From NCBI GenBank assembly GCA_041660605.1, contig JBAZWB010000002.1, positions 170,408-234,407 on the forward strand: DNA of 64,000 bases. Reading direction: 5' to 3'. This DNA comes from Patescibacteria group bacterium (GTDB lineage Bacteria > Patescibacteriota > Patescibacteriia > UBA10025 > JAHIVO01). Of the stretch, positions 1,001-63,560 are shown one piece after another. The notes beneath the pieces are model-generated. The model had not been told where the DNA came from. It made no database searches and saw only the letters and a list, made by a program, of their open reading frames with translations. The position numbers and the translations under genes were made by a program. Every line of letters starts with the position of its first letter. Within the stretch, counting starts at the first letter, position 1.

Positions 1001-2566
1001 CTATTTCAATATTACCTTATTATAGCTACTTTTTAATTTCCGGACAATTCCCTGCTCCATATCCATTTCTACGCGATCGCCCGTTTTTAATACCCGGGTG
1101 GCAACTTTACAGCCGATAATGCAAGGTTTTTTTAGTTCACGTGATATAATCGCCGCATGGCAAGTTAAGCCTCCCTCATCAGTTATCACTGCTTTGGCGC
1201 GCCGCAAATAAGGGATAAAATCAGGTCGGGTCATAGTGGTGACTAAGATATTGCCGGAAGAAAACTTTTGCTTATTGACATCCATCACTACCTGCACTAC
1301 GCCGGTCATTTTTTTTACCGGCGCGCTGGCCACCTGTCCGGTTACAATCATGGATTTTATTTTTACTCCCAGCTTGAAAGCTTTGAATATTTGCCGGGCC
1401 TGACGGCCATAATAAATTGTTGGAATGGCCTGATGGCCATGCTTGACGATGGCATAAACAGATAACTTCCTGCGCGCTTTGGCAATTTTTTGATCAAGGC
1501 GCCGGCCGTTCAGCAATAAATTCTTAACCTCCTTATATAAATAGTATTTAACCTCCCAAATGTTTATGGCAAAACGCCTGGCCAGCTCTTCGCAAAAAAG
1601 AGTAATAAAATGACTGGCTATAAGCATATGCTGTTTGCGATCATCAATCAATTCTCCAAAATACCGCACTAAGAATAAATGCAGCCTTAAATCGGGGGAG
1701 AAATGATATTTTGCCGATATTTTATGATGTTCTTGCCTTAGACGTACGGTTTTTGTATTTAAACTGGCAAGTTCATTTTTTAACTTTTGATATGAATTTT
1801 TTCTAATTTCCTCCGTTATCTCCAGGAAATACTGTTCTCTGGTAATAACCCGCGTTTGTGCAAATGAATTCCTGGTCCAAAAATAAAGCTTCTGCAGCCT
1901 GGTGATTTCTTTCAGCCATTTTTCCGAAGAGATATCCGAGAGACTGATTTTTTTTCGCTTTTTAATCTGGCGATGCAGGCCTAAACAAATTTCCAAAAAC
2001 AACCGCCGCTCTTGTTCAATAAAGCTTAGATGTGCTGGCATAGCCATCAGGCTGGTAATCTCCCTGGCTGCGGCTTCAGGTACTGCCGGCAATTCATCCG
2101 CAACCAACGGTTCCAGATAATATGCAGTGAAAACGTCCACGCACTCCCAAGCAGCGCCGAATCGCAAAAAATCAATATAACTCTGCATAAAAGACTCATA
2201 GATCCGCCAGAACTTCTGGTTTGATAATTTATGCTTATTTTTTCCAAAATACTGCCCCAAGGTTACAAACTTTTTTCTTTTTTTTACCTGACGCTTTTTT
2301 AAAGCTAAATACCGATTATTTATTTTTGATTTGTTAAAAATATATTTATACACCTCATACTTCTCCTGCTCCGGCGTTTCTTCGTAGAAAAAATCATCCT
2401 GGAAAGGCAAAACGGCAATTGTCAGATATTTCGGATGGAAATACCTGGACTGCTCAATGAAAGCATGCATTATTTGCGCAACACAATGATAAGCAGCCGG
2501 CGCTTTCTCCTCCCACCAGCTGATATTTTTAATAGTTTTCTGTAACTGAGCAAAATCCATAAGCAA
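1001..2566 (-). CDS. PEP-utilizing-enzyme mobile (phosphohistidine swivel) domain protein, array member 1 (521 aa)
   Basis: The C-terminal block TRPDFIPYLRRAKAVITDEGGLTCHAAIISRELKKPCIIGCKVA..VEMD matches the PEP-utilizers swivel domain with the catalytic His. The N-terminal ~430 aa are helical with no PPDK_N ATP-grasp motifs. Confidence 0.8.
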   Translation of the reverse strand: MLMDFAQLQKTIKNISWWEEKAPAAYHCVAQIMHAFIEQSRYFHPKYLTIAVLPFQDDFFYEETPEQEKYEVYKYIFNKSKINNRYLALKKRQVKKRKKFVTLGQYFGKNKHKLSNQKFWRIYESFMQSYIDFLRFGAAWECVDVFTAYYLEPLVADELPAVPEAAAREITSLMAMPAHLSFIEQERRLFLEICLGLHRQIKKRKKISLSDISSEKWLKEITRLQKLYFWTRNSFAQTRVITREQYFLEITEEIRKNSYQKLKNELASLNTKTVRLRQEHHKISAKYHFSPDLRLHLFLVRYFGELIDDRKQHMLIASHFITLFCEELARRFAINIWEVKYYLYKEVKNLLLNGRRLDQKIAKARRKLSVYAIVKHGHQAIPTIYYGRQARQIFKAFKLGVKIKSMIVTGQVASAPVKKMTGVVQVVMDVNKQKFSSGNILVTTMTRPDFIPYLRRAKAVITDEGGLTCHAAIISRELKKPCIIGCKVATRVLKTGDRVEMDMEQGIVRKLKSSYNKVILK

Positions 2567-2604: not shown

Positions 2605-4062
2605 TTATTTGACTATTTTTATCAGCCCATGGTTCGCCCTGACTTCAACAATCATGCCATCTTTCAACACTTTCGTGGCGATTTTTGTGCCGATAACGCA
2701 GGGCAGGCCAAGTTCACGCGCAACAATAGCAGCATGACAGGTGATACCGCCTTCATCTGTCACAATGGCGGAAGCCTTTTTCAGGGCGGGTAAAAACTCC
2801 GGCCGGGTCATTGAAGCGACAATCACGTCGCCCTGGCCTACCTTGCTCAGGGAGGCGATGTTGCGGCAGACCGTAACGCGCCCGACCGCCGTACCGCCAT
2901 TGGCCACCGAACCATGTATGGAGCTGCCGTCGGCGGCTGAGCGCTGTTCCACTGCGCGGATCAAAGGCAGAAGCTTGCGGTATTGTTGGCCACTAACTTT
3001 ATATTCTCCGTCTTTTTCCATTAAAATCAACATGCCCAGCTGCCTTTGCCGCAATAGAGGTGATATTGATTTTAACGCCTTTATTGAACGAACTGACAAT
3101 GATTCGTTTACCCCAAGCTGATAAATTTGTTCAACAGTTAAATCAGACCGGCGGGCTAATTCACGCGCCACTAAAGCTAAGTATGAAACATTTCTAAGGA
3201 TGTTAGCTTTCCTGCTATCCTGCCAAATCGTGGTAAATTCAATCAAATTGATAAATTCTCTAAGCGACCGGCTAATTTTCAGACGGGCGAGCAAACGCAG
3301 TTTTTTCCTGCGAACAGACCCGGGATTAACCAGCTTGATTGATCGAACAGCTTCAAGCCGGCGCATAAAGTCATTGATCGTTAATTTTTTCGGGCCGCTA
3401 TAGCTGTTTTGAATCCAGAAATATTTTTTAAGATGCACGGCAAGGTTTTTCTTGCGTAACGACCTCGGCAAACGGGCGATACGCTGTAAAGCGGTTTCCT
3501 GCTGACCGATAAAAGACGCTTCCGCCGGGGTAGTCAAAAGGTTATAAATCTCATTAAAATCCGGCTGTACGCCGATCGACCGCAGCAGCATAGATTTGAA
3601 TTCCTTTTCTGCGGCGACACTGATTATCTCAACTAAATGACCGACTCCTACCGTATCTATCTGCGCCTGCACAGAATGGCGAAAAAAATCCATTAACTCG
3701 TCCTCACTAAGACGGTGCAGCACTGTCTTGCTGATTTTTACTTGAAACGCCTCAGCTTCTGAGATTTTTTTATCGTATAATCGTTTAACCTTTACCAAGT
3801 AATTTTTATCTCGCTTCAAAAGTATTTTTATCTTCTGCCAAATGGCGGCAATATCTGTATTCAAATAGGCCATCTCCCCGTAGCCATCACGATAATGGAA
3901 GAGGAAGCCGTGATAGCCGAAACCAAGATCATGCCTCATGTTAATACCGCTAATGGCCGAGGGGCCGAGAAATAGTGGCACAGCATTAAATCCCTGAACA
4001 TACCAGTCCAGATTTATGGCCTTTTTTATTTTTTTAAAATCATTCATTATAAAATTTTCCAA
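2605..4062 (-). CDS. PEP-utilizing-enzyme mobile domain protein, array member 2 (485 aa)
   Basis: The C-terminus TRPEFLPALKKASAIVTDEGGITCHAAIVARELGLPCVIGTKIATKVLKDGMIVEV matches the swivel domain. The N-terminus carries the shared motifs KKYFWIQNSY and IWQDSRK...ELARR. Confidence 0.8.
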   Translation of the reverse strand: MENFIMNDFKKIKKAINLDWYVQGFNAVPLFLGPSAISGINMRHDLGFGYHGFLFHYRDGYGEMAYLNTDIAAIWQKIKILLKRDKNYLVKVKRLYDKKISEAEAFQVKISKTVLHRLSEDELMDFFRHSVQAQIDTVGVGHLVEIISVAAEKEFKSMLLRSIGVQPDFNEIYNLLTTPAEASFIGQQETALQRIARLPRSLRKKNLAVHLKKYFWIQNSYSGPKKLTINDFMRRLEAVRSIKLVNPGSVRRKKLRLLARLKISRSLREFINLIEFTTIWQDSRKANILRNVSYLALVARELARRSDLTVEQIYQLGVNESLSVRSIKALKSISPLLRQRQLGMLILMEKDGEYKVSGQQYRKLLPLIRAVEQRSAADGSSIHGSVANGGTAVGRVTVCRNIASLSKVGQGDVIVASMTRPEFLPALKKASAIVTDEGGITCHAAIVARELGLPCVIGTKIATKVLKDGMIVEVRANHGLIKIVK

Positions 4063-4077: not shown

Positions 4078-5643
4078 TCAACTTCTCTTAATCACCGTAA
4101 CCACGCCGTGGTTGCCATTAACTTCTACAATGTCGCCGTTCCGCAGAACTTCAGTGGCGATCTTCGTGCCGATGACGCACGGGATATTTAACTCACGTGC
4201 GACTATGGCTGCGTGGCAGGTGACGCCTCCTTCGTTAGTAACAATGGCCGCCGCTCTTTTCATGCCCATAATATAATCCGGACGGGTCATCACGGCCACC
4301 AGCACGTCGCCAGGCCTGACATTTTTAGTTTCCGTAGCGCTTTTTACGATTCTGGCCGGTCCGCGCGCCACACCCCGGTTTGCCGACAAACCGCGAAAAT
4401 CATTGACTGCCTGCAAAGATCTTTTCTCAAAAATTTTCTTAAACGTCCCCCGGGCGTTGGAGGTAATTACTTCATACTTATCTGCTCCTAATTGCAGCCA
4501 TAGGCATTTTTTCCATCTGGCACGCGCTTCCTGCGGTGTCACTAGGGGCCTGGCAAAAAGCGAATCAACCTCCGGTGGCGCCAAATACTTCATCTCCTGC
4601 AGAGTAAATCCGAAGCGCCGGCCGATTTCTTTGAGCAGAATACTGCCGTAATGCGTGGACCAATAGGTCATTTTCTTACGATTGTCCTGCCACCAGGTGA
4701 AATCCTCGGAGATTTCCAGAAGCACACGGATTTTTTTTGGCGGATTAAGTTTCTTCAGTAATATTTTTTTCTCCTGAAGGCTGCGCTGAGGCGTAGCCAC
4801 AATCTGCCTGATCTGCTGGCCAATATTAATGCTGGATTTGAACACGGCCTTCAGCTCACCAACCCACTTATTTACATCCAGATAATTATTGTGGACATAG
4901 TTATTCTTACTCCAGAAATAGTCCTGCTCCTGCTTCTCTAGCAATTTTATAATAGCTGGATAGTAACGAACGATTTTTTGTAGATTTTTTATTGGGCGCT
5001 TCCGAAAGGCTCGACTCAAGACTGGGATTCCTTTGACTCTATTCGCTATACGCAATAAGCTGACCTCCGCTTCATTGATAAACGAATGGTGCACAGGAGC
5101 AGTAAGAACGGAAAAAAATCTGGATAACTGCTTCTCCAATCCCTTTGCTTTTAATACCATCATCAATTCTTTTTGGATCAGATAGTCAGTGCCCAGGGCA
5201 AAACCATCGATGATTGAACTGGATGTGACGAATTTCAAATCACGCCGGATATACTCATCGTACAATTTTACTAAATTTTCATTATCTAATTGTCTCAAAT
5301 GCTCCCAATCAGTGTCCAGACAAAACCGGTAAAACGCCGCTTCATCAGCAGACCAACGCTTCATTAATCCCTTGGTGAAATGCTTTTTATGCATGGCCAA
5401 ATCAGTCAACCGTTTCGCAATGCGATCAATGTCCTCCTGATCAATATACCAGTCCGATTTATCCTGTTCAAACAAGCCGAAGTGGCTGGTGGCATGGCAA
5501 CCAAACTTGCGCGCTTCTGACGCCAACTCGGCCATGGAAATGAGAAAAATAAAATGCGGGCTGCCATCAAACCGCTGATGGTACCACTTTTTACCCTGGA
5601 TTAGAGATAAATTCCTTTTTATCAACCCCTTAACTGGCTTCAT
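4078..5643 (-). CDS. PEP-utilizing-enzyme mobile domain protein, array member 3 (521 aa)
   Basis: The C-terminus TRPDYIMGMKRAAAIVTNEGGVTCHAAIVARELNIPCVIGTKIATEVLRNGDIVEV matches the swivel domain. The N-terminus has the motifs DYFWSKNNY and WWQDNRK. Confidence 0.8.
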   Translation of the reverse strand: MKPVKGLIKRNLSLIQGKKWYHQRFDGSPHFIFLISMAELASEARKFGCHATSHFGLFEQDKSDWYIDQEDIDRIAKRLTDLAMHKKHFTKGLMKRWSADEAAFYRFCLDTDWEHLRQLDNENLVKLYDEYIRRDLKFVTSSSIIDGFALGTDYLIQKELMMVLKAKGLEKQLSRFFSVLTAPVHHSFINEAEVSLLRIANRVKGIPVLSRAFRKRPIKNLQKIVRYYPAIIKLLEKQEQDYFWSKNNYVHNNYLDVNKWVGELKAVFKSSINIGQQIRQIVATPQRSLQEKKILLKKLNPPKKIRVLLEISEDFTWWQDNRKKMTYWSTHYGSILLKEIGRRFGFTLQEMKYLAPPEVDSLFARPLVTPQEARARWKKCLWLQLGADKYEVITSNARGTFKKIFEKRSLQAVNDFRGLSANRGVARGPARIVKSATETKNVRPGDVLVAVMTRPDYIMGMKRAAAIVTNEGGVTCHAAIVARELNIPCVIGTKIATEVLRNGDIVEVNGNHGVVTVIKRS

Positions 5644-6924: not shown

Positions 6925-8376
6925 TCACAGCTTCCTAATGACCCCTTTATTAGCGTCAATTTCCACTCTATCCCCATTTTTAAAAACTTTTGTGGCCACC
7001 TTTGTGCCTACAATACAGGGTATGCCCAGCTCTCGGGAAACAATGGCCGCGTGGCAGGTCAGGCCGCCAGTATCAGTTATTATTGCCTTCGCACGTCTAA
7101 TGGCGACGATATATTCCGGAGCTGTCATGCTGGATATCAGGATTTTTCCACTGGGAAATTTTTTGATATCATTTGGATTATTAACTATATAAACCTGGCC
7201 GCGTATATTTAATTTTCCGGAGCTGACCACTAATCCAGAAATAACTTTCTCTTTCAGCGTGGTCTCAGGCGCCTCCCAGAATTTTTTTATAAAATCGGCT
7301 GCCGCCTGCGGTCGTAGGACGCTAAGTTTATTCTTGGCAAACCTGGCAACTTTAAGGTGCCATTTGCTTCTAAGAAATAACCGCTGCTTATCGACTGCTT
7401 TTAAAGGCAACCGTATTTCGTCAAGATAAGCGTAATGGAATGAACTGAATGGCATATGATTGCGCCGGGCAATCTCCCTTACTAGCGTCTCAAAATAATG
7501 TAAATACTGAAAAATTAATTTTTTACGCTGGTCCTGCCACCAGATGCAAAAACTTAATTTATCGGCCGTCTGTATTAACTTTTTATCTAGCTGATAAAGT
7601 TTGATAATCTTCTTTTTTCTTTTCTTAATCTCCATCAAACCCGCTTTTATCTTACTAATTTCGTTTAAACCATTGCTAACTAGCCTCTTCTTTTCTCTTA
7701 ATCGCTTGAGAAAATATTCTACTGGTAGTACCCTCGTGCTAAAATAACTGTTTTCCAGCCAAAAATATCGTTGCTGATGATTGTTAAGCAGATTTTTAAA
7801 ATTATTCTTTCTATAACTAGCAATAAGCTTCAATAAATCAATTTCTTCTTCCTGATAAAAAGACAGGCGTTCAGGCGCGGCAATTACTGAAGATATTTCA
7901 TTTAGCTCATTCTTTGACAAATGCTCCTTTATCAACATCCGATTCAAGATACTTTCTCCGCCGTACGCCGCTAATTCCGGGACAACTCCCGCTTCCCAAA
8001 ACTTGAAAAGCAGGTTGTTGTATTTTTTCCACAAATCAACCAATGCTCTATCGCTCATTGCTGAGAAATTATCAAGAGAAATTTTTTTATGGAAGGCTGA
8101 TAAATCAACTACTGCTTTATTCCAGGCAAACCAAATTGATTTCCCGCGGACAGTTCCGACCAGTTTTTCGAAAATACTGGCTCCGACTGCTTCGAGTTTT
8201 TGGCGTTCACATATAAATAGTCCCCTGGTCCCGTTGAAAATTACATAAGATTCCGGCCATAAATAATGATGCAGCCTGCCTGGATAATCATTGTAAATTA
8301 CCAGCCAGTGGGTGATATACATCAAGCGAAGCGGAATGGGACCCCAGCGAAATATATTTTTTTTAATATCAAGCAT
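6925..8376 (-). CDS. PEP-utilizing-enzyme mobile domain protein, array member 4 (483 aa)
   Basis: The C-terminus TAPEYIVAIRRAKAIITDTGGLTCHAAIVSRELGIPCIVGTKVATKVFKNGDRVEIDANKG matches the swivel domain. The N-terminus has QRYFWLENSY and IWWQDQRK...EIARR. Confidence 0.8.
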   Translation of the reverse strand: MLDIKKNIFRWGPIPLRLMYITHWLVIYNDYPGRLHHYLWPESYVIFNGTRGLFICERQKLEAVGASIFEKLVGTVRGKSIWFAWNKAVVDLSAFHKKISLDNFSAMSDRALVDLWKKYNNLLFKFWEAGVVPELAAYGGESILNRMLIKEHLSKNELNEISSVIAAPERLSFYQEEEIDLLKLIASYRKNNFKNLLNNHQQRYFWLENSYFSTRVLPVEYFLKRLREKKRLVSNGLNEISKIKAGLMEIKKRKKKIIKLYQLDKKLIQTADKLSFCIWWQDQRKKLIFQYLHYFETLVREIARRNHMPFSSFHYAYLDEIRLPLKAVDKQRLFLRSKWHLKVARFAKNKLSVLRPQAAADFIKKFWEAPETTLKEKVISGLVVSSGKLNIRGQVYIVNNPNDIKKFPSGKILISSMTAPEYIVAIRRAKAIITDTGGLTCHAAIVSRELGIPCIVGTKVATKVFKNGDRVEIDANKGVIRKL

Positions 8377-11006: not shown

Positions 11007-11008
11007 AA

Positions 11009-12085
11009 TTATTTTTGTAACAATTTTACTTGCCCACGCGTTGCATCCACCTCCACCTTATCACCATCTCTTAAAACTTGAGTGGCGATTTTCGTACCGA
11101 TGACGCAAGGGATCCTTAATTCGCGGGAAATAATTGCAGCATGCGATGTAATTCCGCCCTCATCAGTAATAATAGCTTTTGCCCTCTGGTATGCCAAGAT
11201 AGTATCAGGGCGAGTCATCTCGGTTACTAAAATTTCATTTTTTCTGAATTTTCTGATTTGATTGGAGATATTATGCGATTTGTGGAGTACCAACCTTACA
11301 CTACCCCTGACTTTTCCTTTGTACGCTATTGTACCAGTAATTGCTTGTTTTGAATTAGTAAAATAATGATTAACCCATTTCCATATTTTTTTATATTCCT
11401 GACCGGTTAAAATAATTTCCCGACCACCCATTTTCCATAAAAGATATCCCTTTTTTCTACGCGAAATTAACTTTTGCGGAACACTTTTCCCTGTAAACAC
11501 TTTATTTATCTCTTTGCTGGTATAAAAATATAAATCTTGAGCGGCAATATTGAAACTTTTCCCAACTGTTGTTAGCAATTCTTTAAAAAGCAGATAAAAA
11601 ACTTGCTCGCCGGCCTTCCGCAGTTTAAAACGCAAGCGGCCAAGCTGATGCATTGTTTTTTTCTCCTTGGCACTGGCCAATGATTCAAATTTTTTTAGCC
11701 TCACCTCCTCAGTCCAGGTATAAATATTACTGTATCTATTGAGCAAGGAAACCATTTCCTCAAATAAAACCTTCAGCTGTCTATTACTCAACTTTTTGAT
11801 ATCAGTATTCCCGTATTTTTTGATGAATTGCCCAATTTGAAAAATAATTCGATCAGCATTTTTATGATACGCAGCAAAAGCGCCTGCCTGACTAAAAAAA
11901 CGGTGGCCTTTCTGGATTTCCTCATTATAACGGCCATTAATAAAATACAGATGTAAAACCGATTTATTATAAAAACACAGTAAATTATCATTTAAAATTA
12001 AATGGCGCTTATCAGTCAGCCAAAAAAGCGGTAACAAATATTCACGCGCCCAAAATTCTACTGATTTAATTTCTGATAAGCTCAT
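11009..12085 (-). CDS. PEP-utilizing-enzyme mobile domain protein, array member 7 (358 aa)
   Basis: The C-terminus TRPDTILAYQRAKAIITDEGGITSHAAIISRELRIPCVIGTKIATQVLRDGDKVEVDATRG matches the swivel domain. Confidence 0.75.
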   Translation of the reverse strand: MSLSEIKSVEFWAREYLLPLFWLTDKRHLILNDNLLCFYNKSVLHLYFINGRYNEEIQKGHRFFSQAGAFAAYHKNADRIIFQIGQFIKKYGNTDIKKLSNRQLKVLFEEMVSLLNRYSNIYTWTEEVRLKKFESLASAKEKKTMHQLGRLRFKLRKAGEQVFYLLFKELLTTVGKSFNIAAQDLYFYTSKEINKVFTGKSVPQKLISRRKKGYLLWKMGGREIILTGQEYKKIWKWVNHYFTNSKQAITGTIAYKGKVRGSVRLVLHKSHNISNQIRKFRKNEILVTEMTRPDTILAYQRAKAIITDEGGITSHAAIISRELRIPCVIGTKIATQVLRDGDKVEVDATRGQVKLLQK

Positions 12086-13578
12086 GATATTTTTTTAACT
12101 ACGCCTAGCTTCGCATCCACCTCAACGCGGTCGCCGTCTTTTAAAACGCTGGTGGCCGTCTTCGTGCCAACAATACAGGGTTTTTTCAGCTCCCGGGCAA
12201 CGATGGCTGCGTGGCAGGTGATGCCGCCCTCGTCAGTGACAATCGCCCGGCACTTGCGCATGGCCGGCACAAAATCAGGGTGCGTGGTAACCGCAATCAT
12301 AATATCGCCCTGCCTGATTTTCCGTAAGTCATGCTTGGTATAGATTACCTGTGCCGAACCCACCACCTGCCCGGGCGAACCCGCCATCCCGTGCAGAATA
12401 CGCGTTTCGTGAATACACTGGCCGCCAAGTTCCTGCTTGATCATTTTTTTAAGCTCTGGGCCTTGCATCACGACAACCTCGCCCCCATGCTTCCGCAATA
12501 ATCCATAAGCTTTAACCCGTGTCTTTAATACTGTTTTGTCCACTGGTAATTTTCCCTGCGTAAGGTAGGCAATCATTTCCTTTCGGATTAGATGGGTTAT
12601 TTCTTTAATAGTAACGCCTGCCCGACGGGCTAACTCATGATAAAGCGGTTGGATATTGTGGCTACCTAAACGGCGGTAATCATCGCGCTGATCCTTAATA
12701 AACGACATTTCATGCGCCATAATCAATAGTTCTCGCTGGCGGGGAGTAGGATACAGCTCATGCAATATTTTCTTGAACATCCGCTGGCGGTAGGGGAAAC
12801 GTTTTCTTAGCTGGCTTAACTCAAGCTTTAGACTAGCAATATTCTTCCGGAGCAACTTGTTTAATTCCGACATAAAGTATTCCCTTGTCCATGGCTTATC
12901 ATTAATGTCATAACATGGCAGCCAGCGGTACTTCTGCCAGTGGAGATTAATCAGGCGGCCAATAGCTGCTTGCTTCAGCCGAGGCTGGCTTTTTGTCCAA
13001 ACAGCCAGCTTAAGTAAATTTTCATGTTCGCTAATTACAGCATTCTTTTTTTCCGGTGAAAATATTATCTCAACAATTTCCTCCGTATCCGACACGCGCT
13101 GGTGCTGACGGAGGAGCTTTTGCAGCTCTTGTTCGGCGACCTGCGAAATAAAAGGTTCCGTAATAAATGGCACCCAGATCGGGCCATTGAAAAAATCCAG
13201 ATGCAGCCGATCAAACGCTAAATAACGTCTTCTCAGCTCTCTCCATGATAGTTTAGTCAGGTTACCGTTGGCCAGCTTCTGCGCGCCGCTGCCATATCTA
13301 ACCTGCCATCGCCGGACCAACTGCATATAGTAATGAAAAGTTGGCAGGTTTTTACAGGTGCCGTAATATACTTTTTTGGTAAAACGCTGCCATTCTGCAT
13401 TTTCATAATATATCGTATGATTGCCACGTTCGGGAGCGACCAGGTTGTTCTGCAGACTGGCATGAAAACGCTTCCGGTAGAAATCCGAAATAAAAACCCG
13501 GATGACAATTTCGAACCGCTGGCTGCAGAATTTCCGGGAAAAATAATGGGTCCAAACTATTTTTTTATCTTTACTCAT
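12082..13578 (-). CDS. PEP-utilizing-enzyme mobile domain protein, array member 8 (498 aa)
   Basis: The C-terminus THPDFVPAMRKCRAIVTDEGGITCHAAIVARELKKPCIVGTKTATSVLKDGDRVEVDAKLG matches the swivel domain. The start codon overlaps the stop of member 7 in an ATGA arrangement. Confidence 0.8.
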   Translation of the reverse strand: MSKDKKIVWTHYFSRKFCSQRFEIVIRVFISDFYRKRFHASLQNNLVAPERGNHTIYYENAEWQRFTKKVYYGTCKNLPTFHYYMQLVRRWQVRYGSGAQKLANGNLTKLSWRELRRRYLAFDRLHLDFFNGPIWVPFITEPFISQVAEQELQKLLRQHQRVSDTEEIVEIIFSPEKKNAVISEHENLLKLAVWTKSQPRLKQAAIGRLINLHWQKYRWLPCYDINDKPWTREYFMSELNKLLRKNIASLKLELSQLRKRFPYRQRMFKKILHELYPTPRQRELLIMAHEMSFIKDQRDDYRRLGSHNIQPLYHELARRAGVTIKEITHLIRKEMIAYLTQGKLPVDKTVLKTRVKAYGLLRKHGGEVVVMQGPELKKMIKQELGGQCIHETRILHGMAGSPGQVVGSAQVIYTKHDLRKIRQGDIMIAVTTHPDFVPAMRKCRAIVTDEGGITCHAAIVARELKKPCIVGTKTATSVLKDGDRVEVDAKLGVVKKIS

Positions 13579-15071
13579 AGTCTTTTAATTATACCCTTAT
13601 TTGCATCCACCTCAACCATTTCGCCATTTTTAAATAACCGCATGGCAAAACGGGTGCCCACCACACAAGGTATTTCCAATTCACGGGAAATAATTGCGGC
13701 ATGCGAAGTCAGGCCGCCTTCATCAGTGACGATCGCGCCGGCCCTACGAATCAGCGGTACAAAATCCGGCCTGGTCATATATGTCATCAGCACTTCGCCT
13801 TTTTTTAATTTTTTCCCCTGCAAACCAGGTGTCTCAATCTTTCTGACACGCCCGCGATAATATCCCGGCGAAGCCGCTATGCCTTTCAATTCATTAACGC
13901 CACTTTTTAAATTCATCTCATTAATAATTTTCCAAATAGCGGCAAGCTGGCGGCCGGTTAAAATACCTTCCTGGCCATCGGCAAAAACATAATACAGCAT
14001 TCCCGATATTCTTTTTTTCAGATCCGCTCGGACAATTTTTTTTCCTTTAATGCTGGCAATGAACTCCTGCGGTATTAAATGCTGAGCCTCTGAAACCGAT
14101 AAATTGGAAATTTTCGTTACCTGGCTAATAAAACGATTGCACCAATAATTACCCAATAAATTAGCCACTTTTCTCTCATCCTGCCAATGGGCGGCGAAAC
14201 CGATGCGCTTCAGCTTTTTTATTTCCTCCTTGGATAATTTGGTCTTTTGTTCTGCCTGATGCTGCCGCCGACGTAAATCCTTTTCATAGTTTTTTAAATA
14301 GATATGCCTATTATTAATTTTCTGGTAATTTTCACTATCAAGCATTCTTAACTGGCTGTAAAATTTCCCCAATGACAACGGCTTTGTATCGCGATAGTTA
14401 AAATGCATCCAGTAATATTCTTTTTGGATCTTAATTAATTTTTGATAAGCCGCCGGCTGTTTCTTCTTAAAAATTTCCAGAGTTTTTGGCAATCTGCCTT
14501 TCAATTTCAAATACAAATCAAGCAGTCCCAGCTCTGCCATTTGTAAAAATGCCAGTTTTGGTGGGCTGGCAAATAATATGATATCCTCGTCAATTTTTGA
14601 TAAAAACCCATATTTACTCTTTAAGTTTTTAATCAATTTATCACCAGCCAGGGAAAAATACTCGGTAATCAAAGGCAGGCTGTATTCATACAAATATAAA
14701 TTATAAAAATTAAGGAAATCCCGCTGCAAATTTTTGATCCCCCTATGCGCCAGGTGATCTAAATTTTTATAATACCGTCTTTTATCCTTCTCCCACTGAA
14801 AATATATTTTGTTTACAAAATCAACATGGCCTAAACACCACTCACCCAGTTTGGTTAATTCGTCTTCGTCAAAAATCCAATACGCGCGATTGCCCCCATT
14901 GAAGGAAGCGATAATAATTTTTTTCGCTTGTAAAATAGGGAATCGCCGGTGCATAATCTTCGTTATTGCCTCAGCTGGTATGATAAACATTAGAGGTACG
15001 CCAACTCCGCCTTGGATTACCCAGCGCTTTGTGTTTATTAATATTTTCTTTTTTGTACTTTTAAAATTCAT
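13575..15071 (-). CDS. PEP-utilizing-enzyme mobile domain protein, array member 9 (498 aa)
   Basis: The C-terminus TRPDFVPLIRRAGAIVTDEGGLTSHAAIISRELEIPCVVGTRFAMRLFKNGEMVEVDANKG matches the swivel domain. The N-terminus has KEYYWMHFNY and HWQDERK. Confidence 0.8.
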   Translation of the reverse strand: MNFKSTKKKILINTKRWVIQGGVGVPLMFIIPAEAITKIMHRRFPILQAKKIIIASFNGGNRAYWIFDEDELTKLGEWCLGHVDFVNKIYFQWEKDKRRYYKNLDHLAHRGIKNLQRDFLNFYNLYLYEYSLPLITEYFSLAGDKLIKNLKSKYGFLSKIDEDIILFASPPKLAFLQMAELGLLDLYLKLKGRLPKTLEIFKKKQPAAYQKLIKIQKEYYWMHFNYRDTKPLSLGKFYSQLRMLDSENYQKINNRHIYLKNYEKDLRRRQHQAEQKTKLSKEEIKKLKRIGFAAHWQDERKVANLLGNYWCNRFISQVTKISNLSVSEAQHLIPQEFIASIKGKKIVRADLKKRISGMLYYVFADGQEGILTGRQLAAIWKIINEMNLKSGVNELKGIAASPGYYRGRVRKIETPGLQGKKLKKGEVLMTYMTRPDFVPLIRRAGAIVTDEGGLTSHAAIISRELEIPCVVGTRFAMRLFKNGEMVEVDANKGIIKRL

Positions 15072-16530
15072 TTCTCAATTTTTTTACATAACCGGAGTTG
15101 GCATCAACCTCTACTTTGTCACCATCCTTGAACACTTTAGTACCTATTTTCGTCCCTATTATGCAGGGCTTACCTAATTCACGGGAGATAATCGCTGCGT
15201 GGCAGGTGATGCCGCCCTCATCGGTTACCACCGCTGATGCCCTTTTCATTGCTGGAGCAAAATCCGGCGTCGTCATGGAAGTTATCAGAACATTCCCCTG
15301 CTTTAGTCTGCCTAAGATATCACCCGCTTGATGCGATACCCTGGCAATACCCCTGGCCTTGCCTGGCGAAGCTGCTATACCTTTTATCTTGTCAATATTG
15401 GCAAAATTTTTCCGCCCAAAAACTTGGAGCTGCTTGTCTTTTGCCTTTTGGCCGCCTAAAACAATAAACTTACCCCTAGTGGCTTCGCAATACAAATATT
15501 TCTGGCGGCTTCGCACTTCCTGCCAGTCAATTGCTTTATTTATCATAACCTCGTTTATTTCCTCGGGTGTGCACCATAAAAGATCGTTAAAACTGATCTG
15601 CCTTTGCCGATTTATAAATTCCCGTAATAACAGACGGCTGGCATACATGGCCTTCATCTGAATTTCTTTCCTCCAATCATGCAAAACCGCAATTTTTTCA
15701 ATCAATTCTAAATATGAACTAATTTTTTCCGGCAGATGATATTTTCTTTTTATTTCACTTTTTTTGCGTTTGATGTTTTTAGGAAAATTCCTGGCTTCTT
15801 TGATCTTTTGATCAAGCTGTTCGGGCGTAAAATTTAATAACTGCTTAATTCTGGTTTTAATATCGGCTATAGTCTGAATTTCAACGTAGCCCCAGCCAAG
15901 TGAGATCCACCAAAATTCATTATAATGCCTCATGATCAAGGCATCTTTGCGTTTCCTGACGAGCTTGTCTTTTATTTTTCTGGCAATAGTTAAAAGGCTC
16001 AGCTCTTCCTTTTGTAAATATGTAGGCTTAGTGGGGGTTAATAGTATATTTTGGGCATAATGATCCGTTGATGGTATCAGCTTATTGAGCAGTGGCGGCA
16101 AGATCACCTCTAAAGCTTCATCAACGCCATCCAAAGGCATTCCCAAATTAGCAAAGTGCAGATAATTACTGCTGAATTCCGTATATGATTTATAAAGAGC
16201 TTTATTGGAATACTGCTTTAAATTTGCGGTAACAATTTCTTCAGTAAAACTAATATTCTTTTTCTGCCAATACTTCCAGATACGGAGATAAGTATTTTTA
16301 AATTTATCTGAATTTATCAATCTATCCGCTATTCTTATGCCATACTTTAAATTATCTTTATAAGGATAAAACCAGCTTAAATTTTTTCCGGTTGAGATGT
16401 AAATAATCCTGCTAAAATCAATATCTAATTTTGAAAGGTTATGATTTACAGGGCCAATAACCCAATAGTAAAGCACCTGGGGTACGCAATTACCACGGCT
16501 ATACTGCATCCATTTTGTGCCAATTATCAT
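15061..16530 (-). CDS. PEP-utilizing-enzyme mobile domain protein, array member 10 (489 aa)
   Basis: The C-terminus TTPDFAPAMKRASAVVTDEGGITCHAAIISRELGKPCIIGTKIGTKVFKDGDKVEVDANSG matches the swivel domain. The N-terminus has NEFWWISLGW and HDWRKE. Confidence 0.8.
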   Translation of the reverse strand: MIIGTKWMQYSRGNCVPQVLYYWVIGPVNHNLSKLDIDFSRIIYISTGKNLSWFYPYKDNLKYGIRIADRLINSDKFKNTYLRIWKYWQKKNISFTEEIVTANLKQYSNKALYKSYTEFSSNYLHFANLGMPLDGVDEALEVILPPLLNKLIPSTDHYAQNILLTPTKPTYLQKEELSLLTIARKIKDKLVRKRKDALIMRHYNEFWWISLGWGYVEIQTIADIKTRIKQLLNFTPEQLDQKIKEARNFPKNIKRKKSEIKRKYHLPEKISSYLELIEKIAVLHDWRKEIQMKAMYASRLLLREFINRQRQISFNDLLWCTPEEINEVMINKAIDWQEVRSRQKYLYCEATRGKFIVLGGQKAKDKQLQVFGRKNFANIDKIKGIAASPGKARGIARVSHQAGDILGRLKQGNVLITSMTTPDFAPAMKRASAVVTDEGGITCHAAIISRELGKPCIIGTKIGTKVFKDGDKVEVDANSGYVKKLRNEF

Positions 16531-36467: not shown

Positions 36468-36824
36468 CCTGTATATTTCTTCCAATACACCATCAATATT
36501 TTCATATACTTCATTAGCCCAAACTCTGATAACCGAGTAACCGCGTCGCTTGAGATAAAAATCACGTTGCCTGTCTCGCTCTATTTGCTTGGGAAAATTA
36601 TGACCGCCACCATCAACTTCTAAAACCAATTTGTGCTCCATGGCACAGAAATCAGCAATATACGGCCCGATTGGGCACTGACGCCGAAATTTAATATTCA
36701 TGAATCTTCTATTCCTTAATAATGACCACATTATTGCTTCCGTCTGGGTTTGCCTTTTTCTAAGGCTACGAGCGATTTTTGTCATTTTTTTAGCCATTGA
36801 ATACCTCTCCTGGCCTCTCCCCAT
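36414..36824 (-). CDS. DUF559 domain protein (Vsr/restriction-endonuclease-like fold). The true start is probably Met10 at ~36797
   Basis: The DUF559 core is present in IMWSLLRNRRFMNIKFRRQCPIGPYIADFCAMEHKLVLEVDGGGH...RDRQRDFYLKRRGYSVIRVWANEV. The first 9 codons of the annotated ORF lie inside repeat copy B. Confidence 0.7.
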   Translation of the reverse strand: MGRGQERYSMAKKMTKIARSLRKRQTQTEAIMWSLLRNRRFMNIKFRRQCPIGPYIADFCAMEHKLVLEVDGGGHNFPKQIERDRQRDFYLKRRGYSVIRVWANEVYENIDGVLEEIYRFVNNTSPSVPFLKERNA

Positions 36825-36918
36825 GGGAGAGGGATTAATACATTCACCCTTGGGCTATTAATCAGTCCTTCCTCTCCCTCCGGGAGAGGAACCGAAGGTG
36901 AGGGGGTTATACTACAAA
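36803..36918. repeat. copy B of the ~107-bp palindrome-containing repeat. It begins exactly at the leuS stop codon and extends to the DUF559 start
   Basis: It contains CTCTCCCCATGGGAGAGGG and TTCCTCTCCCTCCGGGAGAGGAA inverted repeats. It is a direct repeat of copy A, and the pair brackets the DUF559 gene. Confidence 0.6.
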
Positions 36919-39900
36919 ATTTATTAATCGGCCTGGCACAAAAATCGTTTTTTTCGGCTGCTTGCCTCCCAGCCATTTTTTAATCTTTTCACTGGCCAGT
37001 GCCCTCTCCTGCGCCTCTGTTTCAGAAATTCCGGCTGGCACAGTAAACTGGTCGCGCACCCTGCCGTTCACCTGCACCACGAGGGTTATTTCTGCTTTAA
37101 CAATCAATTTCGGATCAAATTCTGGCCATTTTTCATTAAAAATACTCTTCTTATGACCTAACTTTTCCCACAATTCTTCGGCCAAATGCGGGGCAAAAGG
37201 CGATAAAAGCACTAAAAATGTTTCATATGCTTCACGTGGAACAATTTCCTCGGAAAACCATTCATTACTGGCCTCCATAAAATGGCTGACACAGGTGTTA
37301 AATTTAAAATTTTCAATATCATTAGTAATAAACTTAATCAGGGTATGCAATGATCTTTTCCCCTTATTAAGCTCGACATCGGCCACATTTTCACCGGCTT
37401 TATAAAGCCTATCTAAAAACCGGCGCACACCAATAATCCCCTGCATATTCCACGGCTTGGCGTCCTCAAACGGCCCCATGAACATTTCATACATGCGCAT
37501 GGTATCCGCGCCGTATTTTTCTATTACCTCGTCGGGATTAACGACGTTACCGCGCGACTTGGACATCTTTTGCCCGTCTTCTCCGAGGATTAATCCCTGA
37601 TTTTTTAATTTTTTAAACGGCTCATCTCCGCATTTCTCCGGCACCGCTTTGATATCAAATAAAAACTTGTAAATAAACCGCGCGTACAGCAGATGTAAAA
37701 CTGCGTGCTCTGCCCCGCCGATATATAGATTAACCGGCAGCCACTTCTTTAATTTCTCAGGATCAGCCAGTTGCTTATCATTATGCGCATCACAGTAGCG
37801 CAGGAAATACCAGTTTGACCCGGCCCATTGCGGCATGGTATTGGTCTCGCGTCTGGCCGGACCCCCGCACTGCGGACATTTGACGTTTACCCATTCTTTA
37901 ATATTGGCCAGCGGCGATTCGCCTGTGCCGGTGGGCTCGTATTTTTTTACGTCAGGAAGCAGTACCGGCAAATCTTTCTCCGGAACAGGCACCTGGCCGC
38001 ATATCTCACAATGTATGATCGGTATTGGTTCACCCCAATACCGTTGTCGGCTAAATAGCCAATCGCGTAGTTTGTAATTAATCGTAGCTTGAGCAACTGA
38101 TGAATTTGACGAGCTTTTCGGAAAGAATGGTAATATTTCCGGTAATGATGTCACACCTCCGGTAGATTCGCTGAAATGCGATTTACCTGGCATACAATGA
38201 ATCTCGGCTTCTGGAAGGTTTTCCTTATAATATGCCATGCTTTCGGGAGGAACGTATGGATCATTATCCGAGTGGATAATTATGAACCGTTTTGCCAGCG
38301 AGCGTATTTTTGGCCAATTAAAATTTTGGGCGCTGCTCATGTTCTTGACCGCGTCCCAATCGGCTTGGGGATACTTTTGCTTGAGTTGCGGCCAATATTG
38401 TAATGGATTTGTCGGCGCAACCAAAATAACCGTATCAACTTTTTTTTCTAATTGTTGTAGGTGAAATAAAATCGAAGCGCACCCTAGGCTATGCCCAACC
38501 AATACGGAATTTTCATTGATTCGCTGGTCGAACTGTCCAAGATACTCGTCCCATGAATTTAAAACCGGGTGGCCTGCGCCAGGCATAGTCGGGACTATCG
38601 TCTCCCAGCCGGCTTTATTAAGCTCCTCTTTCAGCCAAGGAAACCAATTTTCCCGTTTATGACCGCTGATCCCGTGAACGATAAGGCAGGCATTATGGAC
38701 CTGTTCTGTTTTGGAATTTAGCCACTCCACGATTTTTTTCCGGCCTTGTTCGCTGGAAATGCCGTTGAACTGCCCGGAATTAACCATCGTGCCGTCGCCG
38801 GTCCAGCATTGGCTCTCTAGATCCGCTTCTTTCACGCCCCAGGCAGACGCACTGCCCAGAGACGGATAGGTTTTCGGCATTACCGACGGGGGTTTGATGA
38901 CCTGGATAATTGGTAATTTAAACTTTTTGGCGAATTCAAAATCACGTTCGTCGTGAGCGGGGACAGCCATGATCGCTCCGGTGCCGTAAGTTGATAAAAC
39001 GTAATCCGCGATCCAGACCGGTATTTTCGCGTTATTAACGGGATTAATGGCGTAAGCGCCGGTGAACACCCCGGTTTTTTCCTTGGCTAAGTCTGTTCTT
39101 TCTAAATCAGACTTGGCGGCAGATTCTTTTTTGTATTTTTCCACAGCTTTAAATTGTTTCTCGGTCGTGATCAAATCAACCAGCTCGTGCTCTGGTGACA
39201 AAACCATATAGGTAGCACCAAACAACGTGTCAGGACGGGTAGTAAACACGGAGATAACCTTGAACTTAGAACTTAGAACTTCTGATAACTTACGACGCGG
39301 TTCTTTGTTCCCAGTCCAAAGTTCAAAGTTAACAATCGCTCCTTCCGACCGGCCAATCCAATTCCGTTGCAATGTTTTAATAGATTCCGGCCAGTCCAAA
39401 TCGTCCAAGCCGTGCAATAGCCGCTCAATGTATTTTTCATCGGTAATTTTCACCAGCCACTGCTTGATTTTCTTTTTCACCACCGGTGTGCCGCAACGCT
39501 CGCATTTGCCGTTAATTACCTCTTCATTAGCCAGACCGGTTTTGTCTTTTGGACACCAGTTAATGGGAGCGTAACTTTCATAAGCTAAGCCATGTTTGAA
39601 AAGCTGCAGAAAAATCCACTGCGTCCATTTATAATATTCTGGATCAGAGGTGATGACTTCACGTTTCCAGTCATAGGAAAAACCCAGGCTTTTTATCTGC
39701 CGGCGCATGTTATTAATATTTTTTGCGGTGGTAGTAGCTGGATGTGTACCGGTTTTGATGGCATAATTTTCTGCCGGCAGGCCAAAAGAATCAAAGCCCA
39801 TTGGGTGCAGGACATGATAACCCTTCATCCTATAAAACCGCGCGACAATGTCCGAAGCGGTATACCCCTCGGGGTGTCCGACATGCAAGCCCTGGGCGGA

Positions 39901-40047
39901 AGGATAGGGGAACATATCCAAAACATAAAATTTGGGAGACGAGCTGTTTTCTTTCGTGTCCCAAATTCCTTCCTGCTCCCATTGCTTCTGCCACTTTTTT
40001 TCTACCCGACTGCTGTCGTATTTTATATTCATAACTGATTGAATCAT
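36907..40047 (-). CDS. leuS: leucine--tRNA ligase (LeuRS) carrying an inserted alpha/beta-hydrolase domain (1046 aa)
   Basis: The HIGH motif is HVGHPEGY and the KMSKS motif is QKMSKSRGN. The CP1 editing domain is present ([19 protein letters not shown] ... [15 protein letters not shown]), as is the [19 protein letters not shown] segment. The protein is ~190 aa longer than typical bacterial LeuRS because of an insertion at aa ~450-640. Confidence 0.9.
38127..38700 (-). other. alpha/beta-hydrolase (YdeN/RBBP9-like serine hydrolase) domain embedded in LeuRS between the CP1 editing domain and the catalytic core
   Basis: The segment [14 protein letters not shown]...[13 protein letters not shown]...[12 protein letters not shown]...MPGKSHFSE has an HG oxyanion motif, the GHSLG nucleophile elbow, and Asp and His in the canonical triad order. 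It is in frame and flanked by LeuRS sequence on both sides. Confidence 0.75.
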
Positions 40048-40189: not shown

Positions 40190-41071
40190 ATGAAAAAATG
40201 GTTCCGTTTTATTGACCATTTCAGGTTTATTCCTGAATGGATCAGCGTACTAAGACAAGAATTCAAACTCTCAAATCTCAAAATGTGGGCGCTAATGCCG
40301 CCACTACTGGAGATGGACATAATTGATATTGAACAGAAGGAAATTGATCGTTATCAATTGATTCCTGGATCACTGGTACGTCTGGCACTTGGTCTGGTCA
40401 ACTCCATCGTGCGGCTTCTGGTGCGCTTCCATGTTAAGGCTGATCACATCACCATGGCTGGAGCATACCTTAGTCTGAACTCGCTGCCCCTGCTCGCTCA
40501 GGGATATTTTACCTGGGGCGCCATACTGCTCCTGGCCGGCGGCCTGTGTGATTTGCTTGATGGAGCGGTCGCGCGCCTATCAAATACATGCTCACCCGTA
40601 AGCCAACGAAAGGACTTCCTGGCGGATAGGCTCTCGGATGCCGCGCCATTAGTAGGATTATTTTGCTTCTTCAGCAACGGAGACAATAACATGCTCCATA
40701 GTGCGCTCGCCGCGGGGGCACTGGAGATAAGTCTCAGGATAAGCTACATCAAGCGACTGGCCCTCCAAATCAAATTATACAAGCCCTGCGCCGGCATACT
40801 ACAGCGCCAGCATCGCCTCCTCCTACTCGTGTTCGGCCTCCTCTTATGTGGCGCGTATCCGCTACCACCGCAAGTTGCTACGCCCACCGTATTGTTCTTT
40901 TTCGGCCCGCAGGTAATTCTCGTGTGGCCACTAACCCTAGTGCTGATAATTATTCTACTACTAGGTACTATCACGTTTACGCAGCGGCTGGTCTCTGCAA
41001 TCCTCGGCACTGCAAACCTGCGGACAATACTGTCTATATTCCGTGGTGAAACGAGTCCACGAGCTGAGTAG
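40190..41071 (+). CDS. CDP-alcohol phosphatidyltransferase family membrane protein (293 aa)
   Basis: It matches the D-G-x2-A-R-x8-[GS]-x3-D-x3-D motif in DLLDGAVARLSNTCSPVSQRKDFLADRLSD. Multiple TM segments are present. Confidence 0.6.
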   Translation: MKKWFRFIDHFRFIPEWISVLRQEFKLSNLKMWALMPPLLEMDIIDIEQKEIDRYQLIPGSLVRLALGLVNSIVRLLVRFHVKADHITMAGAYLSLNSLPLLAQGYFTWGAILLLAGGLCDLLDGAVARLSNTCSPVSQRKDFLADRLSDAAPLVGLFCFFSNGDNNMLHSALAAGALEISLRISYIKRLALQIKLYKPCAGILQRQHRLLLLVFGLLLCGAYPLPPQVATPTVLFFFGPQVILVWPLTLVLIIILLLGTITFTQRLVSAILGTANLRTILSIFRGETSPRAE

Positions 41072-63526: not shown

Positions 63527-63560
63527 AAAAAACAGTTCATCTTTTATTGAACTGTTTTTT
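63527..63560 (+). terminator. rho-independent terminator after the TrmB-family gene
   Basis: AAAAAACAGUUCA-ucuuuuau-UGAACUGUUUUUU gives a perfect 9-bp stem with flanking A and U tracts, so it is potentially bidirectional. Confidence 0.55.

Follow-up and report, generated by a model that had tools for sequence, protein, structure and literature searches.

The subject of this work is the gene for leucyl-tRNA synthetase (LeuRS), leuS, located on the minus strand at positions 36907..40047 of a 64,000-nucleotide stretch of DNA, in the following called the window, from a Patescibacteria group bacterium (contig JBAZWB010000002.1 of assembly GCA_041660605.1, positions 170,408 to 234,407). The 1046-residue protein encoded by this gene is found to contain a complete hydrolase module of the YdeN/RBBP9 type, nested at the C-terminal edge of the CP1 editing domain. 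The reading that we favour, and to which we would give about an even chance of being correct, is that the module acts as an autonomous esterase that is tethered to a fully functional LeuRS and does not replace CP1 editing.

Identity and fold of the nested module

The insert comprises ca 205 residues (aa 450–655). The first part of it, aa 450–640, encoded at 38128..38700 on the minus strand, is the hydrolase module, and this is followed by a low-complexity linker, [15 protein letters not shown] (aa 641–655, 38083..38127, minus strand), which leads the chain back to LeuRS at residue 656. The original prediction, which was made from the letters of the window and did not give the strand of leuS, had placed the insert at 38127–38700. 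This assignment holds as aa 450–640, except that the exact span is 38128–38700 and that the linker has to be added in order to obtain the overall length of ca 205 residues.

The Pfam family PF06821 (Ser_hydrolase) is matched at aa 455–639 with an expectation value (E) of 2e-19 (70.4 bits) in the context of the whole protein, and with E 8e-21 (75.1 bits) when the insert is scanned alone, the gathering cut-off being 22. Positions 2–167 of the 172 in the profile are covered. All Pfam matches of the insert are to alpha/beta-hydrolase families, with none to CP1, YbaK/INS, AlaX/tRNA_SAD, DTD or B3/B4. The nearest solved structure in terms of sequence is YdeN of B. subtilis (1UXO, E 4e-16), with RBBP9 farther away (E ca 5e-5).

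The structural models agree with this assignment. An AlphaFold2 model of the insert, built from an alignment of 59 sequences, has a predicted local distance difference test score (pLDDT) of 89.6 and a predicted template modelling score (pTM) of 0.87. When it is compared to the Protein Data Bank with Foldseek, the top match is again 1UXO, with template modelling (TM) scores of 0.80/0.88 and a root-mean-square deviation of 2.0 Å, and the second is RBBP9, including its phenylalanine complex 7OEX (TM 0.73/0.81). In the model of the full-length protein (pLDDT 80.6, pTM 0.70) the secondary-structure pattern of LeuRS is retained and the insert forms a separate beta-alpha-beta domain. The C-terminal linker is modelled with low confidence, the pLDDT being below 50 at aa 632–635 and 646–648. 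Judged from the profile match and the models, the insert is a Ser-Asp-His alpha/beta hydrolase of the YdeN/RBBP9 type, as had been proposed, and one that is predicted to fold on its own.

The catalytic residues could all be located on the minus strand. The oxyanion HG motif is H458-G459 (in VHGIS, aa 457–461), the nucleophile is Ser520 of GHSLG (aa 518–522; codon 38488–38490), the acid is Asp596, which is the second Asp of SDNDP (aa 593–597; 38260–38262), and the base is His624 of GKSHF (aa 621–625; 38176–38178). The lid of the module (aa ~545–580) is extended, with 33 residues compared to a family median of 23.

The minimal core, the GHSLG elbow and the order Ser-Asp-His are common to the module and to YdeN (1UXO) and ML-005 (PF06821/COG3545). 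The latter two are free-standing proteins of ca 190–220 residues, whereas the module is nested, has a lid that is ca 10 residues longer, and is ca 28% identical. YdeN itself is uncharacterised, and since it has no hydrophobic lid, soluble esters or thioesters have been suggested as substrates, while for the YdeN-like ML-005 a short-chain esterase activity with a preference for p-nitrophenyl butyrate has been found (PMC6119806).

The host synthetase and the insertion point

In the open reading frame (ORF) call on the window, leuS is one continuous frame from its ATG start to the stop codon at 36907–36909, without frameshift or internal stop. The whole protein scores 1052.9 bits with the LeuRS profile TIGR00396 (leuS_bact), for which the cut-off is 548.4, and the match is split by the insert into aa 10–447 (model positions 1–401) and aa ~659 onward. 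All features given next are on the minus strand. The N-terminal part (aa 1–449, 38701..40047) consists of the first half of the Rossmann fold, the HIGH motif in the form HVGH (aa 55–58; coordinates verified as 39874–39885), the Zn-1 region and the CP1 editing domain (PF13603, aa 228–443, 38719..39366; E 1.3e-62). In the latter, the editing motifs TTRPDT (aa 269–274; 39226–39243) and [15 protein letters not shown] (aa 355–369; 38941–38985) are intact. The C-terminal part (aa 656–1046, 36910..38082) has the beta-strand linker, Zn-2, KMSKS, and the anticodon-binding (PF08264, aa 899–1008) and C-terminal domains. The conserved LeuRS segment after the insert, [19 protein letters not shown] (aa 658–676), is at 38020–38076, the Zn-2 knuckles HCEICG and CPQCG are at 37996–38013 and 37864–37878, respectively, and the class I signature KMSKS (aa 827–831) is at 37555–37569. 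The earlier description of a single 1046-residue frame with all LeuRS motifs in place is thereby borne out, every motif quoted in it having been found.

In an alignment of 28 LeuRS proteins, with and without inserts, HIGH and KMSKS are invariant, and so are the editing residues T269, T270, R271, D273, T274, D366 and D369 across the decorated and the plain members alike. TTRPDT and AHDERD were detected in all of the 120 LeuRS examined. The synthetic site and the CP1 editing site of the host are intact, and both are predicted to be functional.

The window protein has the full domain set and all signature motifs in common with the canonical bacterial LeuRS of T. thermophilus (1H3N/2BYT) and E. 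coli (4AQ7/3ZGZ), from which it differs in that the chain is broken by a foreign catalytic domain of ca 205 residues at the C-terminal boundary of CP1. When the flanks without the insert are aligned to the solved LeuRS structures, the insertion maps to residues ~409–414 of the T. thermophilus enzyme, in agreement with the position after CP1 given previously, and none of the solved LeuRS matched has an insert there. This stretch is the loop that leads from the last CP1 helix to the beta-strand returning to the catalytic core, and the module is for this reason predicted to hang at the base, or hinge, of the editing domain. Compared to a LeuRS without insert from a related genome (P0070, see below), the extra segment is one block that stands in place of a loop of ca 7–13 residues, and the C-terminal linker aligns opposite GVGRKAV of that protein.

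A number of possible origins of the insert were considered. An intein can be discarded, as the original prediction had done, since the junctions TEQ|VHNAC and QAT|INYK have no Cys, Ser or Thr at either splice position, the domain profile scans gave no match to Hint, intein or LAGLIDADG/HNH endonuclease domains, and the hydrolase fold accounts for the whole insert. A mobile element or a recent horizontal insertion was rejected as well. The only direct or inverted repeats found in the flanks are short ones at chance level, there is no transposase or endonuclease signature, and the composition is not shifted: the GC content is 0.451 for the insert and 0.457 for the host, and the codon-usage cosine of the insert is 0.852, compared to 0.870 ± 0.021 for host segments. 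Finally, a split-gene origin, in which two LeuRS halves flanking a hydrolase gene were later fused, is not supported. The protein P0294 merely ends at a contig end, its upstream frame reading [11 protein letters not shown], and P0215 stops 73 nt from a contig end, with no recognisable continuation.

Authenticity of the locus

It has to be asked whether a chimeric join or a frameshift could have fused a separate hydrolase gene into leuS during assembly. The identical 1046-residue protein (P0060) is public as NCBI MFA6098906.1 and MFA6496478.1, and also in JGI and ENA, annotated as leucine--tRNA ligase of a Patescibacteria metagenome-assembled genome (MAG). It is found on two contigs, the longest of which is 960 kb.

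Two related genomes have leuS in the same gene order, in which ComM-like, histidine kinase, response regulator and LysM/M23 peptidase genes precede it and small ORF(s), Sua5, KsgA, a TSP3-like gene and a giant protein with carbohydrate-binding module (CBM) and dockerin domains follow. At the syntenic position, the first of them (L003, GCA_034678405.1) encodes P0070, a LeuRS of 833 residues that has no insert and is 69% identical over 833 aligned residues. The second (L087/L088, GCA_049325535.1) encodes P0063, a LeuRS of 1160 residues with the same hydrolase at the same site and a second module further on, and this protein is assembled identically in the NCBI MAG and, independently, from SRR32167788 (Logan assembly). 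The orthologous loci thus carry no module, the module of the window, and the module of the window together with another one, respectively. In addition, eight distinct orthologues with the module at this site come from different samples, and the single-cell genome of Ca. Paceibacter normanii SCGC AAA255-P19 (L015) encodes a LeuRS-hydrolase protein of related architecture.

Because of the identical public copies, the uniform composition, the syntenic orthologues and the single-cell architecture, in addition to the single open frame, an assembly artefact is effectively excluded. The same join is reproduced in independent assemblies, a chimeric join having been named with the original prediction as something that would speak against it. 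The orthologous syntenic position also suggests that the leuS of the window is the housekeeping copy.

Modules in other LeuRS proteins

A search of other Patescibacteria LeuRS, also proposed at the outset, shows that the insert is not unique but part of a pattern that extends across the lineage. About 60 of the 120 best LeuRS matches to the full-length query are over-long. Insertion sites were mapped by landmark motifs together with a hidden Markov model made from free-standing PF06821 proteins, a procedure chosen since hmmalign does not tell three of the sites (B, C and D) apart. About half of these 120 closest LeuRS, mostly from Patescibacteria, carry PF06821, NUDIX, Ham1-like or ASCH modules, at four or five discrete sites. 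The first CP1 hairpin, between NWIGRSEGA and TTRPDT, has site A, and a peripheral loop of CP1, a short distance after AHDERD..FAKK..LPI, has site B. Site C, which is the one used in the window, is where CP1 ends on its C-terminal side, and site D follows just past the first CxxC knuckle of Zn-2 (C439/C442 in T. thermophilus), ca 20 residues beyond the CP1 return strand. Site E, before KMSKS, is occupied in one protein.

PF06821 modules are found at site A in 14 proteins, at B in 5, at C in 6 and at D in 16. The other guests are NUDIX at B, Ham1/ITPase-like and ASCH modules at A, and a weakly ASCH-like module of ca 130 residues at D, and some LeuRS have two to four modules in one protein. An example is P0150 (1554 residues), with a Ham1-like module at A, NUDIX at B, PF06821 at D and, before KMSKS, a module of ca 180 residues that gives a weak NTP_transf_5 match. 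Another protein, P0181 (a LeuRS fragment/representative, aa 23–419), has two PF06821 modules in tandem at site A.

In a scan of GTDB genomes, the close relatives of the module are, among the matches listed, overwhelmingly from Patescibacteria and DPANN MAGs, the best being 41% identical, and neither the genome of the window nor another carrier with the module at site C is among these listed matches. Two MAGs with the GTDB labels Methanosarcinales (L006) and Ca. Woesearchaeota (L007) contain a bacterial-type LeuRS with PF06821 at site D, 43–45% identical to P0070, which would reflect either the passage of a decorated leuS from one domain of life to another or bins that are mislabelled or contaminated.

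Conservation and evolution of the modules

Conservation of the triad in orthologues had been named as a check on the original prediction. In the 41 embedded modules examined the triad is kept throughout, the Ser and the His being invariant and the acid being Asp in 38 cases and Glu in three. It is likewise kept in 16 of 16 LeuRS-embedded representatives of the wider family set and in two further site-C orthologues recovered from JGI metagenomes (L090 and L091), and the HG oxyanion motif is preserved in every embedded copy. Over 146 family representatives, the triad columns are kept with two single exceptions, one in the Asp column and one in the His column.

Trees of the modules and of the hosts were constructed by neighbour-joining, without support values. 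In the module tree, the site-C modules form one tight clade, with identities of 63–78% in the trimmed alignment. Most of the site-D modules form another clade, within which two site-B modules are nested, while the site-A modules fall into at least three clades and the rest of the site-B modules cluster with various free-standing proteins. One LeuRS (L092) has a site-C-like, long-lid module (48% identity) at site A. As a reading of sequence trees, this topology implies that there have been several independent captures and movement between sites.

In the host tree, for which the inserts were masked, the module content is very patchy, with the six site-C carriers scattered among LeuRS that have no insert or are differently decorated. 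The site-C modules are on average 67% identical, compared to 59% for their LeuRS hosts, and the Spearman correlation between module and host divergence is 0.53 for site C, 0.16 for site D and 0.28 for site A. The higher conservation of the site-C modules and the patchy distribution together point to frequent gain, loss or exchange of modules, which we deduce from the sequences. From the kept triad, and from a conservation above that of the host, the embedded modules are predicted to be catalytically live.

These results bear on two further explanations of the insert. One is that it would be a selfish or neutral cassette, either passed between leuS alleles by homologous recombination in the conserved flanks or tolerated as a passenger. 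The patchy content on the host tree is in line with such a scenario, given that the site-C modules nevertheless form one tight clade, and so are the moderate or weak correlation of module and host divergence, the presence of several unrelated module types at the same few sites, and the long-lid module at site A of L092. However, the insert has no intein, endonuclease, transposase or repeat signature, its composition is that of the host gene, and part of the incongruence between the trees may be noise, considering how they were made. Furthermore, the presence of the triad in every copy and the conservation of the module above that of an essential host indicate selection on the activity of the module. 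We therefore regard the cassette scenario as improbable.

The other explanation is that the module is not catalytic, the fold serving instead as a structural spacer, as a sensor of a ligand (for example by binding an amino acid) or as a surface that modulates the hinge motion of CP1. The location of the insert at the CP1 hinge would be suitable for this, and the pocket of RBBP9 is able to bind free phenylalanine (7OEX). On the other hand, it would be unexpected for a pseudo-enzyme to keep the Ser, the Asp/Glu, the His and the HG motif in every copy, at four sites and through several captures, and we consider this option to be very improbable.

Association with LeuRS

When 1.84 billion representatives were searched exhaustively with HMMER, 2,212 family members were obtained at E ≤ 1e-3, of which the best 149 were classified. 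They comprise 106 free-standing proteins, 18 LeuRS (whole or truncated at a contig end) and ca 25 other fusions, so that LeuRS, with 18 of the 43 multi-domain representatives, is the commonest multi-domain context. No aminoacyl-tRNA synthetase (aaRS) other than LeuRS is found as a host among these best 149 of 2,212. The partners outside LeuRS are NUDIX (five cases), a second alpha/beta hydrolase, HD, signal peptidase II, peptidase S51 (P0273), an aminoglycoside-nucleotidyltransferase-like domain, glyoxalase/bleomycin-resistance and a TehB-like methyltransferase.

The lineage embedded in LeuRS at sites C and D is distinguished by its lid, which is ca 10 residues longer than usual (32–37 residues, compared to a median of 23–24). 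A long lid is present in 15 of 16 embedded representatives, in 17 of 102 free-standing ones and in 2 of 28 from other fusions. The closest free-standing relative, P0180, is 42% identical and has the same P..DWDAV lid. Its locus (L093) has the order TatD, hydrolase, leuS (805 residues, without insert), Sua5, MFS, in which the ORFs of TatD and the hydrolase share 8 nt and leuS follows after a gap of ca 79 nt. This adjacency was met only once. Of 71 other free-standing loci in GTDB genomes, not one adjoins leuS, and their neighbours include no leuS, NUDIX, Ham1, ASCH, Sua5 or KsgA, and TatD once. It can also be mentioned that the two closest free-standing relatives (L001, 1559–2868, and L093, 3–1029) each adjoin a gene for a TatD-family nuclease, in opposite orders.

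A possible coupling of the module to the chemistry of LeuRS

The association with LeuRS raises the possibility that the module is a hydrolytic site coupled to LeuRS, that is, that it acts on aminoacyl-X compounds produced at, or aimed at, the synthetase. Two versions can be envisaged. In the first, the module would add a third site of proofreading or deacylation, acting on mischarged tRNALeu or on non-cognate aminoacyl-adenylates or esters that have been released. In the second, it would be an immunity module in situ that destroys inhibitors mimicking leucyl-adenylate. In both versions, Ser520 would attack the aminoacyl carbonyl to form an aminoacyl-enzyme, as in RBBP9, from which water would free the amino acid.

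Several of the observations above speak for such a coupling, namely that LeuRS is the sole aaRS host found, that the long lid is enriched in LeuRS (15/16 compared to 19/130 elsewhere), that sites A, B and C are in or at the edges of CP1, with D not far past the return strand, and that the closest free-standing relative is operon-adjacent to leuS. Further support comes from human RBBP9 (2QS9, 7OEX), which has the same Pfam family and fold and whose S75, D138 and H165 align with S520, D596 and H624, although it is eukaryotic and free-standing and only ca 20% identical. In valacyclovir, L-valine is esterified to a nucleoside analogue, so that the compound closely mimics aminoacyl-A76. RBBP9 is reported to be a valacyclovir-activating enzyme, according to the title of Shenoy et al. 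2020 as it appears in PMC7730578. The enzyme is a serine aminopeptidase that cleaves alpha-aminoacyl-X through an acyl-enzyme on the Ser, provided that the alpha-amine is free, and this amine is anchored by Glu108 (PMC8866121). At the column of this residue, the modules have a conserved acidic lid residue (in P..DW or P-D/E-D-P), the amino acid being Asp, Glu or Gly at site C and acidic in most of the C and D modules, with the reservation that the alignment of the lid is unreliable. Of the other pocket residues, F140 and L141 are conserved in character, as Tyr and Ile/Val, respectively, while Tyr99 and Leu103 are not conserved, being Thr and Gln in the site-C modules.

For the immunity version, there are precedents among the enzymes that detoxify aminoacyl-nucleotide inhibitors of aaRSs. 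These are the serine peptidase MccF (S66), whose serine nucleophile cuts the aminoacyl-nucleotide link, the GNAT enzyme MccE, the HIT protein MccH and S51 peptidases, and a leucyl-adenylate mimic that targets LeuRS is also known, TM84 (PMC8323819, PMC9239234). An S51 peptidase is among the partners of the module outside LeuRS (P0273), and an IleRS with a GNAT domain is on record (NF040702). The likeness is one of analogy, since the Mcc-type enzymes have other folds and belong to other families, exist as free-standing proteins or as part of biosynthetic clusters, and no example is known that is embedded in the target aaRS.

The IleRS just mentioned, with an embedded N-acetyltransferase domain (NCBIfam NF040702, ileS_w_GNAT), is by its family record the nearest recorded analogue of the window LeuRS. 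It is likewise a class Ia aaRS with an unrelated catalytic domain, and NCBI holds it as an 'exception' family, but the host there is IleRS and the guest GNAT, compared to LeuRS and a hydrolase here. The window protein scores 66 bits against the 1999-bit cut-off of NF040702, through generic class I homology.

There are, on the other hand, several arguments against the coupling. The CP1 editing residues are intact, which leaves no evident proofreading gap, and the use of four sites, shared with NUDIX, Ham1-like and ASCH modules, is difficult to fit with a geometry tuned to the CCA end. The module is also closer to YdeN than to RBBP9, whose pocket residues Tyr99 and Leu103 are not conserved in it, and the adjacency to leuS is a single case, with 0 of 71 at the other free-standing loci. 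The known editing modules and trans-editing factors of aaRSs are CP1, ProRS INS/YbaK, AlaX/ThrRS N2, PheRS B3/B4 and DTD. Their function would be analogous if the module deacylates aminoacyl esters, but their folds and chemistry are unrelated to it. We know of no alpha/beta hydrolase that serves as an aaRS editing domain, nor of an editing module that uses the Ser-Asp-His mechanism of this fold with a covalent acyl-enzyme. Taken together, a coupled site is in our view possible but doubtful. As regards the extra deacylation of tRNA, which the original prediction had offered only as a possibility, the idea is weakened by the fact that LeuRS across the lineage hosts PF06821, NUDIX, Ham1-like and ASCH modules at several sites.

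A proposed autonomous, tethered esterase

The reading of the module as an autonomous esterase is preferred because PF06821 modules occur at four sites, unrelated hydrolases share these sites, CP1 is intact, and the family is promiscuous in its fusions elsewhere. With PF06821 at four different sites, no single geometry relative to the 3' end of the tRNA would be required. In the proposed arrangement, the module sits in the loop joining the last CP1 helix to the beta-strand that goes back to the catalytic core, where it would be held by a very short N-terminal join and a flexible C-terminal linker of ca 15 residues. Its predicted substrates are small water-soluble esters or alpha-aminoacyl-X compounds. 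The outcome would be a 'house-cleaning' activity that is produced in a 1:1 ratio with LeuRS and stays tethered to it, with no part in CP1 editing. The long-lid sub-lineage of PF06821 would have been captured repeatedly into LeuRS, at sites A–D, and since NUDIX, Ham1-like and ASCH modules occupy the same sites, the LeuRS of related Patescibacteria may be seen as a platform for small hydrolases. The architecture, the fold, the conservation of the triad, the recurrence, the synteny, the independence from a particular assembly and the intact LeuRS motifs are established by the analysis, and from there we infer the catalytic activity of the module, its substrate class and its action independent of tRNA.

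A number of facts weigh against an autonomous esterase. The repeated nesting in LeuRS, and never in IleRS, ValRS or MetRS, which have a similar CP1, among the matches examined, suggests a tighter link to LeuRS, as does the free-standing relative adjacent to leuS. The clustering of the sites on and around CP1 suggests a link beyond co-expression. Also, a terminal fusion would be an easier way to achieve co-expression than nesting in an essential gene, and the platform idea leaves the internal insertion unexplained.

There is also a tentative alternative, which we believe to be rather unlikely, in which the long-lid YdeN-type lineage is a dedicated partner of LeuRS and provides a third hydrolytic site, with covalent serine catalysis on LeuRS-linked aminoacyl-X. 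The lineage would first have been linked to leuS in an operon (TatD-hydrolase-leuS) and then been nested repeatedly into the CP1 and Zn-2 loops. Its substrates would be mischarged tRNALeu, released non-cognate aminoacyl-adenylates or esters, or toxins that mimic leucyl-adenylate.

Other features of the window

The neighbourhood of leuS in the window consists of DUF559, a 156-residue ORF, Sua5/YrdC, MFS, KsgA and a divergent CDP-alcohol phosphatidyltransferase, and these immediate neighbours give no clue to the function of the module. The DUF559 ORF (36414–36824, minus strand; PF04480, E 7e-36), of a Vsr-like endonuclease fold, is directly downstream of leuS. It is also present downstream of the orthologue without insert (L003, 10852–11133) and in L004, and it is absent from the P0063 locus; in a comparison of the window, L003 and P0063 loci no link between this ORF and the insert was found. 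Two genes around leuS are present in the window but not at the L003 and L088 loci, namely a CDP-alcohol phosphatidyltransferase-like ORF upstream of leuS (40190–41071, plus strand) and an MFS transporter between Sua5 and KsgA (33899–35086, minus strand). An MFS gene after Sua5 is also found in L093.

Further away, an array of paralogous proteins of ca 485–521 residues is located at 1001–16530 (minus strand). In the four ORFs that were scanned (1001..2566, 4078..5643, 12082..13578 and 13575..15071) the only Pfam match is a C-terminal PF00391, the mobile domain of PEP-utilising enzymes (E ca 1e-24), the N-terminal ca 420 residues having no Pfam match. By size and position, the ORFs at 2605..4062, 6925..8376 and 15061..16530 are probably additional paralogues. 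The window also has three giant ORFs on the minus strand: one of 3025 residues at 22980–32057, with CBM_4_9 and dockerin matches, which is syntenic in L003 and L088; one of 1446 residues at 52866–57206, with FG-GAP and CarboxypepD_reg repeats; and one of 1060 residues at 19762–22944, with no Pfam match. Finally, three tandem tRNA-Ala genes are found within ca 420 nt at 63560–63976 (minus strand), with the anticodons GGC, CGC and CGC, one of them scoring only 34 bits with Rfam, which is an unusual redundancy for a reduced genome.

Implications

The aaRSs are among the most conserved and best-studied enzymes, and their known editing activities use a handful of dedicated folds. To our knowledge, catalytic domains of unrelated families nested in bacterial aaRSs are rare. 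The original prediction was aware of no described aaRS with an embedded alpha/beta hydrolase, and a full-text literature search that covers few papers from subscription journals likewise returned no account of such an enzyme or of multi-module LeuRS in Patescibacteria. In a 2026 survey of domain insertions, the editing domain of LeuRS is considered solely as an insert and in no case as a host (PMC13114784). The public entries carry automatic names, one of which, at JGI, reads 'leucyl-tRNA synthetase/predicted alpha/beta hydrolase family esterase'.

The present results show that an ultra-small, genome-reduced clade (Patescibacteria, together with some MAGs labelled DPANN) has repeatedly nested small hydrolases in the same loops of LeuRS. 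If the modules act on substrates related to LeuRS, this would amount to a new mechanism of proofreading or immunity. In particular, a lineage dedicated to LeuRS would, if real, constitute a new class of aaRS quality-control or self-immunity domain, and the LeuRS of Patescibacteria and DPANN, with its NUDIX, Ham1-like and ASCH modules, would be a multi-enzyme 'sanitation hub'. If the modules are instead autonomous, as we favour, they would represent a case of reduced genomes packaging housekeeping enzymes into an essential scaffold, and the sites would provide a natural map of positions in LeuRS that tolerate insertions, which could be used in protein engineering. Either way, the uncharacterised bacterial YdeN/PF06821 family is given a concrete functional context.

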